A stretch of 4,106 bases of DNA from a virus (lineage: Duplodnaviria; Heunggongvirae; Uroviricota; Caudoviricetes), in the IMG/VR virus record IMGVR_UViG_2667528155_000002. One strand, 5' to 3'. The notes beneath the pieces are model-generated. The model saw only the letters and a list, made by a program, of their open reading frames with translations. It searched no databases and had not been told where the DNA came from. Within the stretch, counting starts at the first letter, position 1, and each line of letters opens with the position of its first letter. A program made the position numbers and the translations under genes. Shown in pieces: positions 1-4,106 of the stretch.

Positions 1-174
1 ATCTTTATCAGAGACGGATTCCTTCACCAGATCAGCATGATGCTGATAGCCATTAAAGAAGACGTTCAGCACAACGGCGCTAAGGGTTGCGAGCATAATG
101 CCGCTATGCAGCAACGGTTGCAGTACGGCCGGTAACTTAGAAAAGAAATCGTGAGAGAGCGTCGGAGTCATGCC
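1..174 (-). pseudogene. NCS2 (xanthine/uracil permease family)-like C-terminal fragment, in frame with the phage sheath-like ORF; candidate host-gene remnant
   Basis: Minus-strand translation of about 171..1 reads [57 protein letters not shown]. It contains a 21-residue stretch with no charged residues, and the pattern LP..L.PLL.SGI......A.VLN..F resembles the final TM helix of NCS2 permeases as I recall it (for example ...[20 protein letters not shown] in xanthine permease). This is from memory and unverified. Confidence 0.4.
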
Positions 175-1311
175 AACGTTAATCTGTACGTCAGCGTAAT
201 GAACCGCGCCTGCAAGTTTTATTGCAGCCTGAATCACCGGAGCCTTACGGGCTTCACGTTCTGATTGTGCCTGTTCATCCAGCGGCTGGGCGTATACGTA
301 ATAACCTTTGGGCAGCGTGTCACCTGATGACAACTGGCCAAGGTCGCCACCGTTCCATACGCCCGGAGCAATCAGTCCATTCTGAACGGCCTGATCCAGT
401 GATTTTTCAACATTTGATAACAGTCGGGTAATACCGGCTTCAGTCTGGGGAACCTTCGTGGTGCTGGTATAAAGCAGGTTATAGAGGTTGGTCTGCACAT
501 AATTCTGTAACCAGTCCAGGCCGTGGCGTTCATCAAAGAAATCGCCGTTAGCCATCACTCCCTGCTGGAGGATAGCTGTATCATTCTGGTAGTACACGAA
601 CACATTGCAGTTTTTTGCATCAAGTGCCGATGCCTGGCTGACTGTCAGTGTTTCATACCCGACACCCGGCTCCTGCTTAAACTTGAGCGTAATCGCGGTA
701 TTACTGCCATTGAAATTAACCGTGAATGCCCGGCCAAATGCAGATAACGCAGCGAATTTATTACCCGATGAATATTGTATAAAACTGCGTGAATATCCGG
801 CGCTTTTCAGTTTTGATGCCAAATCATCTCTGGATGCAGTCTGCAGGCATTTCTCATCGCTTGTCGTAATCGCCAGAATACGGCTTACAGAAGAGGATTC
901 GATCGCCGCAGCCACTTTCAGCCAGTCTGCATCCGGAATATCTGCATCGTCTGCAATCCCCAGCCCATACCATGAAGTATAATCAAGCATGGCATTCACA
1001 GCCTGCTCCAGCGTCTCAGGCGTGGCCTGTTCGCTGTCTCCCTTCGTTTTCACCCAACGACCAACAAAAACCTCCTGAGGTTTCGGTGATTGTGAGAAAA
1101 ACACCTGCGCAGCTTTATATTCTGGTGATTCCACGCCAAAATCTTTTCCAATATCTTCCGCGGCAGAATAACGGCGAATGCGCTCACTTACCGGAATGAT
1201 TGTGGACGGGCCGAGAATGAGTAATGCACCAAAATTTCGCCCTGATGCTGCACGCGGCGACATGATCACATCAACATTAACAACGTTTGATACAGGCAAG
1301 CCCTGTGCCAT
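1..1311 (-). CDS. Phage tail-sheath-like structural protein (DUF3383-like N-terminal ~380 aa); 3' end runs off the window; the last ~55 in-window codons look like a permease transmembrane helix, so the ORF may be chimeric
   Basis: I translated the minus strand by hand: ATG at 1311..1309 preceded by GGAG (1323..1320, 8-nt spacer), then 437 sense codons to position 1 with no stop. It is missing from the ORF track, apparently because it has no in-window stop. N-terminus [40 protein letters not shown]... matches my recollection of DUF3383 sheath-like proteins. It is last in a capsid-to-tail gene order. Confidence 0.8.
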
Positions 1312-1314
1312 AGC

Positions 1315-1878
1315 TTAATCTCCGAAAAAGATGACTGGTGCTTCCACCAGCGATTTAATACCGTACTCGCGCACAACCTTCCGGCGCAGGCGCACCGTCA
1401 TATCGTAGCGGCGGACCCATTGCTGATTAATAAGTTCAGGGAAGGGAGTCAGACCTGTGTAATCGCCAAGAGACAGCCCCAGCGCATTCAGTGCTGCATT
1501 GTTCTGCGGCACAGATATACCGTCACGAAACCGGGACGCATACACCATCCCCGCCGGTCCATAAAACGAAGCCATACACTCAATCGTTTCATGCCGCCAG
1601 AGCTGAGAGCCATCATCGGTCTGTCTGGTGAATGCCGGACTGTCATCACCTGACCATCCGATAACCCCAAACGCACACCAGTTCGTTTCAACCGGTAGCA
1701 GTGGCGGCTGCTCTTTCTGCCAGCGCGGGCGAACCATCCCGGCAGACAGGCCGGAAACGTTACGCATCCACTGGCTTAACAGCCTGTCGAGCGCTTCGTC
1801 ATAATCCGGATCGCCACTGGTTGGTATTAACCATCCGCGCTCTGTACTGGTGTTATTGCTCAACCGGAGTTCCCCCAT
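1315..1878 (-). CDS. Hypothetical phage neck/tail-completion protein (187 aa from ATG 1878; 188 aa if the TTG at 1881 is used)
   Basis: ORF track 1315..1881. The first codon at 1881..1879 is TTG and the second at 1878..1876 is ATG. Stop TAA at 1317..1315. It overlaps the 3' end of the upstream gene by 26 nt, with no strong SD, so translational coupling is likely. It sits between the adaptor-like gene and the sheath-like gene. Confidence 0.7.
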   Translation of the reverse strand: MGELRLSNNTSTERGWLIPTSGDPDYDEALDRLLSQWMRNVSGLSAGMVRPRWQKEQPPLLPVETNWCAFGVIGWSGDDSPAFTRQTDDGSQLWRHETIECMASFYGPAGMVYASRFRDGISVPQNNAALNALGLSLGDYTGLTPFPELINQQWVRRYDMTVRLRRKVVREYGIKSLVEAPVIFFGD

Positions 1879-2242
1879 CAAACGGCATCAACTCACAATG
1901 CGCCTGAACGAATCCGGCACCATACGCTGTATACGGGTCGACGAAAGTCACACGATAATCACGGCCCTGATACGTCACGATATCGGCATCACGGCCAGTC
2001 TGTCCCTGTGTCAGTCGCTCAGTCGTCACAATCAGAATTGCACCACTGATTACCTGCCCGGCCTGCATACGACGGTTTTCCAGAGAGCGATCAACAGTTA
2101 CGACTCCGGCAAACTGCTTTTTAACTTCACTGTCGCTGCCGATCCCGTCCTCATCCACCGTTTGCACTCGGCGTGTTACCCACAAATTGAAGCCGCAAAA
2201 ATCGGGGTCAAAAAGCACATCTGTTACATCAAGAGTCGGCAT
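1853..2242 (-). CDS. Putative phage head-tail adaptor / head-closure-like protein (129 aa)
   Basis: ATG at 2242..2240 preceded by GAGGG (2253..2249, 6-nt spacer). Stop TAA at 1855..1853. It overlaps the upstream gene by 14 nt. Its size and position after the connector-like genes fit an adaptor role; the family call is a weak impression only. Confidence 0.7.
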   Translation of the reverse strand: MPTLDVTDVLFDPDFCGFNLWVTRRVQTVDEDGIGSDSEVKKQFAGVVTVDRSLENRRMQAGQVISGAILIVTTERLTQGQTGRDADIVTYQGRDYRVTFVDPYTAYGAGFVQAHCELMPFDGGTPVEQ

Positions 2243-2783
2243 CTTTATCCCTCACTACATGGGTAATAGCTCTGCGATATTGCCCGGTGTCAATTAATGG
2301 TTTCGCCAGATCGGTTCCGGGAGATTCGCCAGCAACACGCCGGGCAAGTTCCAGTGTTGCCCCCTTGCGCCCCCGACGAGCCCGGGCTTCAACAGTGCTG
2401 TCAGCAAGCGGCGTAAAGCCGGTAATAGTCATGTAACGCCTGACGCCATTAGCGGCCAGCGTTCCGGCACGGTTGAGTGCGCGTTCTGCTCCCGCAGCAT
2501 TACCATCAAGAGCAGCCTGCGCCGCGGTTTTGAGCTGCGGCACCGTCTGCTCTTCTGCCGATTTAACGCCGGGGACCAGGTGAGGTCGTGGCGGGATGTT
2601 CTGCTCTGGTGAGCCGTATTCGTTGAGGTAACCGATGCCCGCATTACCAAACGGAACATCATCCCGCCCGCTGTCTTCCGAAGGGATGCCGACCAGCACA
2701 TCTTTTTTGGTTAACGACCTGAGCGCATCCAGAATGGCCTTAGCGTTATCCACCCTCGTTGTTACACCGCTTTTGAAACTCAT
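2229..2783 (-). CDS. Putative phage neck / virion-morphogenesis (tail-completion-like) protein (184 aa)
   Basis: ATG at 2783..2781 overlaps the upstream TGA stop (2782..2780) in an ATGA arrangement. The protein is Ala/Arg-rich with a C-terminal [13 protein letters not shown] motif reminiscent of phage tail-completion/gp10-type proteins; this assignment is tentative. Confidence 0.7.
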
Positions 2784-3187
2784 AGCTGGCGACCGCCTGC
2801 ACCGAACATCGTGATCAACTGATAAAATTCAGCGCCATATCGGGTGTTATTCCAGAAACCTGCATCAGGATTCAGCGTCGCGCTGGTGTCATAGCTGACG
2901 CTTACCTTGTCAACGGACTTTGAGGACTGAACACCATTGGTTGAACCGCCCGGCCCGCCAGCCAGCATCGCCCGGCTGTCTGCCGCCCAGAGCGTCATGT
3001 AGTGTGCAACGAACAATCCGGCAAAATACGGAAACAACTTTTTGCCGGTGACGTTTTCGCTCAGCAGTTCATCGGCCAGATTCAGACGAAACTGGATTTG
3101 CGCTTCGGGATATTTGGCAGGGTCAGCAAACTGCGGGAAGTCGCGGCGAAAATCACTTACCGCTGGCAGATTTTGATTCTTTGGCAT
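2780..3187 (-). CDS. DUF4054-like phage protein (head-tail connector candidate, 135 aa)
   Basis: ATG at 3187..3185 preceded by GAGGT (3197..3193, 5-nt A-rich spacer). The translation ...[20 protein letters not shown]...VSVSYD...[12 protein letters not shown]... matches the FR..FP.FAD..YP.AQ... pattern I associate with DUF4054. It lies directly downstream of the capsid-like gene. Confidence 0.75.
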
Positions 3188-3374
3188 TTTTTACCTCGTT
3201 ACGCGCGTCTGTGGCTTTGCCAACGGATACTTCCGCGTGCGCACGAGTGAACCAGTGCGTGGCAACGTCTTCCTCCACAGCATGACGGCCTTTAACAAAC
3301 TCGCGCCGTGAACCGTCGGGAAGCGTGAGCACAAACGGGGTATGTACGTGTATTACTGCATTATTTTTTGCCAT
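3153..3374 (-). CDS. Small phage protein of unknown function (73 aa, Lys-rich C-terminus)
   Basis: ATG at 3374..3372 preceded by AAGGA (3386..3382, 7-nt spacer). It sits between the capsid-like gene and the DUF4054-like gene, and its 3' end overlaps the next gene by 35 nt. No family recognised. Confidence 0.6.
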
Positions 3375-3387
3375 CGGGTCATCCTTA

Positions 3388-3408
3388 ATGGCCCCGCCAG
3401 GGGGCCAT
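3388..3408 (-). promoter_or_regulatory. GC-rich stem-loop (8-bp perfect stem, 5-nt loop) in the capsid / small-ORF intergenic region
   Basis: Plus strand 3388-3395 ATGGCCCC and 3401-3408 GGGGCCAT are exact reverse complements, with loop GCCAG at 3396-3400. On the mRNA it lies 7 nt after the capsid stop (TAA at 3418..3416) and ends 1 nt before the SD of the next gene. There is no U-tract, so it is not a canonical intrinsic terminator. Confidence 0.5.
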
Positions 3409-3415
3409 GTGGCTG

Positions 3416-4105
3416 TTAAATGCCATCAACGTACGAAATGGTTTCTTTGTACACTGGCTCAACCGCACCCAGCTTGCCGTAGTAAGTGACGATCTGATAC
3501 AGACCGCGATACTGCACCGGCACGCTCTGAAGCGGAACCAGCGGGTAGCGAACGTATTTTTTATCGTTGGTGTACGCAACCATGCGATCCTTTTTCCTCA
3601 CACCACGGCCTTTCAGCCATTTAACCGCGCGGATATTCAGCGGAACACCGTTCTGGTGATAGCTGATGGTGTTGGTCTGAAGATACGTCAACAGGGACTG
3701 GTTACCCGCAGATGAAACGATGATGCTGGACAACAGAGCAAACTGCTCAGGCGGGATCAGCAAATCACGCGGAACCACAGAGTAACCGGAAGCGGCCCAC
3801 GCATCAGACAGCACCTGGTTAATGCTTGCGCGGATTTCGTCCGGTGTTGAGGTTGCCCACGTTTTGGCAGCGTTGTTGACAGGCACGCCGTCCAGGGTAA
3901 CAAGGCCTTTCAGGTTTAATGCGGAATCGCCAACATATACCTGTTCATCGTTATCCATCTGCCATTTCAGTTGCATACCGTCATACTTCTGCGTATCAAT
4001 CGGGCGGCCGACCTGCTGAGCAGCCTGCAATTCTATGACCGTCCAGCCAAGTTCCATCCCCCACAGGTTCAGCGGGTTACCGGATTTGCCGATATCCACG
4101 TTCAC
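3416..4105 (-). CDS. Putative phage major capsid protein, C-terminal 229 aa; 5' end lies beyond the window
   Basis: The reading frame is open from the window edge (the first in-window codon is GTG, so the true start is upstream) to TAA at 3418..3416. It is the first and probably largest gene of the module, followed by a stem-loop, a small ORF and a DUF4054-like gene, which is the typical capsid position. Family identity is not verified. Confidence 0.75.
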   Translation of the reverse strand: MNVDIGKSGNPLNLWGMELGWTVIELQAAQQVGRPIDTQKYDGMQLKWQMDNDEQVYVGDSALNLKGLVTLDGVPVNNAAKTWATSTPDEIRASINQVLSDAWAASGYSVVPRDLLIPPEQFALLSSIIVSSAGNQSLLTYLQTNTISYHQNGVPLNIRAVKWLKGRGVRKKDRMVAYTNDKKYVRYPLVPLQSVPVQYRGLYQIVTYYGKLGAVEPVYKETISYVDGI

Positions 4106-4106
4106 G

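Follow-up and report, generated by a model that had tools for sequence, protein, structure and literature searches.

A phage tail-sheath gene joined in frame to the 3' part of Escherichia coli uacT is probably a microhomology-primed chimera at a contig tip

How should one read an open reading frame (ORF) that begins as a phage tail sheath and ends as the last membrane helix of a bacterial permease? The question is raised by a stretch of 4,106 nucleotides, filed in IMG/VR as a virus of the Caudoviricetes (record IMGVR_UViG_2667528155_000002). Here, the whole of that stretch is called the window. An initial annotation saw in its left end a candidate edge of a defective prophage, where a deletion was supposed to have removed the distal tail genes and to have left a truncated sheath gene in one frame with the 3' part of a permease gene of the host.

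Such a structure calls, of course, for caution. An ORF that combines a phage protein, in frame, with a transmembrane (TM) helix at the tip of a short contig can be mistaken for a fusion of domains or for the boundary of a prophage. Here, four checks are revealing: the identity of each half, the geometry of the parent loci, the recurrence of the join, and microhomology at the breakpoint. They lead to the view, which we hold with a probability of roughly 0.63, that the join is a microhomology-primed chimeric molecule at a contig tip, and not the edge of a degraded prophage.

The ORF itself runs on the minus strand from an ATG at position 1311 to position 1 of the window, where it is still open. 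Its start is fixed by a TAA that lies 3 nt upstream of the ATG, and translation gives 437 codons without a stop. The first 379 residues are identical to those of a 381-amino acid DUF3383 family protein (WP_001551485.1), encoded by a prophage in E. coli strain WP3-W18-ESBL-08. Against PF11863 this part scores 338.8 bits, where the cut-off is 34.9 (E=8e-101), which places it within that family. Residues 1-379 also match PHROG 205, "tail sheath", with E=1.9e-134, and they find two sheath proteins of solved structure, tail sheath gp6 (7kh1, E=6e-41) and the Pam3 sheath (8hdr, E=1.5e-23). Thus, the initial annotation was right to call the N-terminal ~380 residues sheath-like. It was mistaken in calling the gene truncated, as 379 of its 381 codons are kept.

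The phage that supplied this half is readily recognized. A SEN34-like myovirus prophage found in ST38-type E. coli (NZ_AP022003.1, for example) matches window 174-4106 at 100% identity, in at least 15 complete genomes, and so do the Escherichia phages vB_EcoM-606R2, -689R2, -611R5 and -683R1 (ON470579, ON470582, ON470588, ON470593). One gene order (major head, small virion proteins, Neck1, tail terminator, sheath) is common to the window, the reference phages and the prophage. Salmonella phage SEN34 is a more distant relative, with ~81% identity over window 1393-4106. The window parts from its references only at the end of the sheath gene. There, the reference gene ends with ...Q-I-N-V-V-R-stop and the tube gene (PF11681) follows 10 nt further on, whereas in the window the final 8 nt of the gene, and everything beyond them, are uacT sequence. 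The features of the window are collected in Table 1.

Table 1. Features of the 4,106-nt window and the basis for each.
Feature	Position	Strand	Basis and remarks
Chimeric ORF	1..1311	-	437 codons, being sheath residues 1-379 plus UacT residues 403-460; translation and residue-by-residue comparison with both parents
uacT fragment (urate/H+ symporter, NCS2)	1..178	-	CDS nt 1203-1380 (gene length 1449 nt), in the reading frame of uacT
5-nt microhomology	174..178	.	CGTTG on the coding strand, CAACG on the + strand; common to both parents, crossover within; three-way alignment
Tail-sheath gene (DUF3383/PF11863, PHROG 205)	174..1311	-	Codons 1-379 of 381, lacking only Val-Arg-stop; 100% nt identity to phage/prophage, with Pfam, PHROGs and PDB homologues
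Neck/tail terminator gene, 182 aa	1315..1863	-	RefSeq annotation of the identical prophage; PF23961; PHROG 1973
Four head-tail connector/small virion genes	1853..3374	-	129 aa; 184 aa, Neck1/tail completion; 135 aa, DUF4054; 73 aa, STY1053 family
Major head protein gene, 3' 691 nt (DUF2184, full length 942 nt)	3416..4106	-	PHROG 264; cut by the right end of the window

The genes of this phage module are those customary upstream of a sheath gene, one for a head protein among them, and they lie close together. Those for the STY1053-family and DUF4054 proteins overlap by 35 nt (3153-3187), the terminator gene and its upstream neighbour by 11 nt (1853-1863), and several other neighbouring pairs by 4 nt (ATGA-type), as is typical of translational coupling in a late operon. 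For the terminator gene, the mechanically called ORF starts with a TTG at 1881 and has 188 aa, against a start at 1863 and 182 aa in RefSeq and public gene calls.

The other half of the ORF can be traced with the same precision. Window 1-178 is identical to annotated uacT at 178/178 nt in many complete E. coli genomes, and ORF residues 380-437 are UacT residues 403-460 of 482 (58/58 identical; WP_001295374.1). The fragment encodes the end of the second-to-last TM segment, a loop, the last TM helix, and the beginning of the C-terminal tail. UacT (YgfU) is a member of the NCS2/NAT family (PF00860), with UapA (5i6c) and UraA (3qe7) as homologues whose structures have been solved. This bears out two further proposals of the initial annotation, that the last ~55 codons resemble the last TM helix of an NCS2 permease, and that the sheath gene continues, in frame, into the 3' part of a permease gene of the host.

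The Pfam search in two pieces that the initial annotation recommended came out differently for the two. The sheath part is recognized by PF11863, but PF00860 does not recognize the C-terminal part, for which pieces of 57 and 80 residues gave zero Pfam matches at E<=1. This blank is not evidence against an NCS2 origin, because PF00860 ends early in the fragment: in full-length UacT the domain spans residues 29-409, and the alignment to UapA stops at residue 414. The origin of the piece is settled, instead, by DNA that is identical to uacT.

A profile of Kyte-Doolittle mean hydropathy (19 residues) agrees. Its peak, 1.84, falls at chimera residue 409, which is UacT residue 432 and coincides with the last hydrophobic segment of UacT; the maximum within the sheath part is 1.26. 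Provided that uacT runs on to its own stop, the chimera would have 459 aa.

Could a protein of this kind do anything? It cannot be a transporter, because the PF00860 core (UacT residues 29-409), and with it the 14-TM fold of Xan_ur_permease, is missing. As a sheath it is without its native C-terminus, and no tube gene lies downstream of it in the window. In contractile sheaths, N- and C-terminal arms interlock neighbouring subunits. For that reason the extension, were the join real, would probably block sheath assembly, and we give next to no credence to the idea that a membrane-anchored sheath is itself functional. The in-frame combination of a sheath with a TM helix is most likely an accident of phase, which has 1 chance in 3, and it bears no sign of selection.

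The two halves meet at a point that can be read almost to the nucleotide. Identity to the phage reaches down to position 174 and identity to uacT reaches up to 178, which puts the breakpoint in window 174-178, inside the interval of 150 to 240 where the initial annotation had predicted a junction. On the coding strand, the phage reads ...CAG ATT AAC GTT GTT CGC TAA and uacT reads ...CTC GGC GTT GGC ATG ACT; the window, at the join, reads ...CAG ATT AAC GTT GGC ATG ACT. How often would 5 nt be shared by accident? Among 200,000 simulated joins in which the two regions were brought together bluntly and at random, microhomology of at least 5 nt appeared with P=0.0055. Because joins of that kind make up just 0.55% of the simulations, the match argues for annealing or template switching as the origin of the join, and against blunt ligation or blind concatenation. 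Microhomology alone does not decide the matter further, because illegitimate recombination in vivo and template switching in vitro both leave it behind.

A deletion edge presupposes that phage and host gene adjoin on the same strand. This is not the arrangement of the parent loci. In NZ_AP022003.1 the sheath gene lies at 1365431-1366576 (+) and uacT at 975555-977003 (-), so that the genes are on opposite strands with their breakpoints ~390.8 kb (about 391 kb) apart. The prophage of this genome is bounded by an integrase (1337682) and by yfhH-yfhb-tadA-mltF-purL. Strain KOr019, which carries the exact 178-nt uacT sequence of the window, has its prophage at the same yfhH-tadA-mltF-purL site and in the same orientation.

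From parents that are about 391 kb apart and on opposite strands, simple deletion cannot create the join. The join is inversion-type, and only an inversion or a chimeric molecule could connect the two. An inversion-type join, in turn, means that the tail genes would have been relocated to the reciprocal junction and not deleted.

Had the join been inherited, it would be present in related genomes or assemblies. It was found in none of those searched. A match spanning it (80% of window 1-300) occurs in 0 of 5,426 complete E. coli genomes, among which uacT is present in 5,364 and the prophage in about 310-330. Neither the GTDB species genomes nor IMG/VR nor the JGI metagenome contigs contain the junction 28-mer. 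At the protein level, exact look-up among ~15 billion proteins returned neither the 437-aa ORF nor the predicted 459-aa chimera; the intact 381-aa sheath protein is found on at least 1000 contigs. A search of 5.8 billion protein clusters gave no sheath homologue with a C-terminal extension among the 120 best, all of which are 379-381 aa long and, at 87% coverage of the ORF, extend over the sheath part only. The initial annotation had held a TM helix to be unexpected in a sheath protein, and these homologues bear that out.

The same may be asked of the second junction that an inversion would leave. The predicted reciprocal join runs through uacT nt ...GTCTCGGCGTTG and then TTCGCTAAGGGG... of the tube-gene side, read through as ...GTCTCGGCGTTGTTCGCTAAGGGG..., and its predicted product consists of UacT 1-402 followed by VR, 404 aa in all. 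Exact look-up of this 404-aa product among proteins gave no match, and the reciprocal junction 28-mer is absent from the genome contig collection (genome_contigs).

Ten genomic contexts of the terminator gene were also sampled. In nine of these, the tube gene comes after a called 381-aa sheath gene. In the tenth (L010) the sheath gene goes uncalled, yet this locus can be aligned with the window from one end to the other, small indels apart; because it is aligned across the sheath region, it is not a rearrangement. The alignments of four terminator-context loci to the window halt exactly at position 174. With the parents not collinear, the join not inherited, and the ends of the prophage elsewhere, neither the deletion of distal tail genes nor the prophage edge proposed in the initial annotation can be maintained.

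Do both halves come, at least, from one genome? At position 114 the uacT of the window has an A; NZ_AP022003.1, whose prophage is 100% identical, has a G. A prophage segment with 100% identity is present in 20 complete genomes, and the uacT of every one of these is an allele other than that of the window. Nineteen are without a seed for the exact 55-mer centred on window position 114, and in the twentieth (strain 82.0312) the uacT region differs from the window at 5 sites. Two carriers of the perfect 178-nt uacT together with the prophage were present among the matches listed, and their prophages are only ~98.4-98.5% identical. Both halves at 100% identity were found together in none of the complete genomes examined.

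This mismatch of alleles would fit a join between two source strains in one sample. As an argument it is weak: it turns on one SNP, the phage is mobile, and at least two host backgrounds that differ in their uacT allele have a phage with 100% identity across window 174-1400.

What process, then, could have joined two such sequences? Both parent genes are already known and ordinary ones, the sheath gene of a SEN34-like phage and uacT. In the reading that we prefer, the parents are the uacT 3' part (window 1-173) and the stretch from head to sheath of a temperate, SEN34-like myovirus (window 179-4106), unrelated to each other and unaltered. While DNA was being amplified or made into a library, a 3' end that closed with ...CGTTG would have switched template and then been extended on the other locus. 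A single chimeric molecule or read, formed in this way outside the cell, would have extended the tip of a short, low-coverage contig. The chimeric ORF would then encode nothing that exists in a cell, and no defective prophage would be implied. That the join was made in vitro is, of course, something that we infer. The window is presumably the whole of a short contig from a low-coverage or fragmented assembly, since it is short (4,106 nt) and both of its ends fall in unique sequence, one at uacT codon 460 and the other in the middle of the head gene. A sheath-UacT fusion, by this account, is most likely not present in any cell.

Several features favour such an artefact. The join unites unaltered sequences that have few nucleotides in common; it is unique, and its reciprocal is absent. 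Only 173 nt separate it from window position 1, which, if that position is a contig end, is expected for a chimeric tip read and would otherwise be seen, by our own estimate, in ~8% of cases. A 391-kb inversion in one replication arm, the alternative, would turn many genes head-on. Further, homology of only 5 nt and an inverted orientation are typical of amplification chimeras. Among MDA chimeras, more than 85% are inverted, and a complementarity of 2-21 nt is seen in more than 70% (Lasken & Stockwell 2007, PMC1855051); the join resembles them in its inverted parts, in the few complementary nucleotides where these meet, and in its unaltered flanks.

Other features count against an artefact. 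A tail of 173 nt, together with the k-mer needed to anchor it, requires either reads of at least ~200 nt or additional genuine reads from uacT. An assembler that is given a well-covered path from sheath to tube normally breaks the contig at the branch; an unbroken contig is compatible with a genome that truly has no such path. Last, MDA chimeras are mostly intramolecular, with short intervening deletions, unlike the parents here, which lie 391 kb apart or come from different cells.

The leading alternative, which we think unlikely, is a real, strain-specific inversion of ~391 kb through inverted copies of the 5-nt CGTTG, one in uacT and one where the sheath gene ends. The inverted interval would be ~975,801-1,366,568 in NZ_AP022003.1, and the prophage would be split between sheath and tube. 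One junction would be a fusion of the sheath to UacT(403-482); at the other, the tube and tail genes would come after UacT(1-402)-Val-Arg-stop. The two halves are oriented exactly as one junction of such an inversion requires. The microhomology, as noted, is above chance, the sequence is clean and error-free on both sides of the join, and the contig passes through it unbroken. The occurrence of the same phage in more than one host background makes a strain with this uacT allele and this phage conceivable.

An inversion of this kind must, however, be reconciled with the rest of the evidence. Neither of its junctions is known from any other genome, contig or protein that was searched, the one that is seen sits close to the end of the window, and the two alleles were found together at 100% in none of the complete genomes that were examined. 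The interval from uacT to the prophage corresponds to K-12 coordinates ~2.69-3.03 Mb, within one replication arm. Inversion within one arm there would set many genes, including an rRNA operon, head-on to replication, and is counter-selected.

Experience with spontaneous rearrangements cuts both ways. Those that use short homology, inversions among them, do form of their own accord in enterobacteria (Sun et al. 2012, PMC3411829), and the present case resembles such inversions in having inverted short repeats at its endpoints and a unique junction. But the verified spontaneous inversions in one systematic enterobacterial survey all had homology of at least 12 bp, against 5 nt here, and inversion-type split reads from Salmonella with microhomologies of 7 and 9 bp failed experimental verification (PMC3411829).

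If the inversion were nonetheless true, it would be a large rearrangement within a replication arm, achieved through 5 nt, that cut an active SEN34-like prophage in two and inactivated both its tail module and a urate transporter. The sheath protein would gain an 80-residue C-terminal extension containing a TM helix, and the tube, tape-measure and baseplate genes would be placed behind the uacT promoter at the other junction. A UacT cut short before its last helix and tail would probably have lost its activity; the prophage, for its part, could not make tails. All this would amount to a modest addition to knowledge of illegitimate recombination in E. coli.

The deletion originally envisaged, in which a prophage adjoining uacT lost its tube, tape-measure and baseplate genes together with the 5' part of uacT and was left as a defective edge, is very improbable. 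It does predict the composition of the ORF (sheath plus the 3' end of uacT, in frame), and it would be viable if the phage had ever integrated near uacT in the right orientation. The tRNA gene nearest to uacT is a tRNA-Gly, 32 kb off, and the genes between the two, in purine and selenium metabolism, are presumably dispensable. Against this, the phage sits at yfhH-tadA-mltF-purL in both genomes inspected in full, with the distance from uacT (391 kb) and the opposition of strands measured in ST38. Its integration is site-specific, with a tyrosine integrase at the far end; no genome among those listed has the phage near uacT; and the sheath gene is all but complete.

Blunt ligation of two fragments, as a cloning or library chimera, or an equally homology-free concatenation in silico, would leave both halves unaltered and the join unique, but it is scarcely credible given how rarely homology-independent joins share 5 nt in simulation and given parents without a common restriction site at the join.

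Some narrower candidates were rejected outright. A mis-join by the assembler through a shared repeat or k-mer fails, as the parents have only 5 nt in common; so does ligation at a restriction site, as AACGTT is found on the phage side only and no site at the join is common to both parents. The join is not an attachment junction between prophage and host, with integrase and prophage ends elsewhere, and it is not the product of aberrant prophage excision, of the specialised-transduction type, with uacT 391 kb from the prophage.

The prophage has features of interest in its own right. At its tail-fibre end (L003 38282-39981; L006 7779-9612), two opposed tail-fibre-assembly genes lie by a truncated pseudogene for a "recombinase family protein". 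This looks like the remnant of an invertible host-range switch of the Gin/Cin type, frozen by loss of its invertase. The join in the window is far from this switch, and the recombinase gene that might have encoded a Gin-type invertase is the truncated pseudogene.

In the early region of the prophage (L003 1-15362, corresponding to NZ_AP022003.1 1338001-1353362), a TIR-domain protein is encoded at L003 4377-5138. Near it are genes for a DNA polymerase and for DUF2800/DUF2815, SNF2-related, VRR-NUC and DUF5906 primase-like proteins. The TIR protein could be the product of a defence or a counter-defence gene.

One RefSeq product in these loci carries the name "xxxxx family membrane-puncturing spike protein" (L001 1-62; L003 34507-35259; L006 12552-13304), where the name of the family has apparently been masked or corrupted.

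Finally, assembly GCA_027274905.1 has two head-to-sheath modules on one contig (JAPXCO010000004.1), at 1057112-1060660 (L010) and 1074371-1077919 (L011). They lie ~14 kb apart in opposite orientation, each ~98.2% identical to the window, and one of them has small indels and missing gene calls. The pair could represent two related prophages or an inverted-duplication artefact of assembly.
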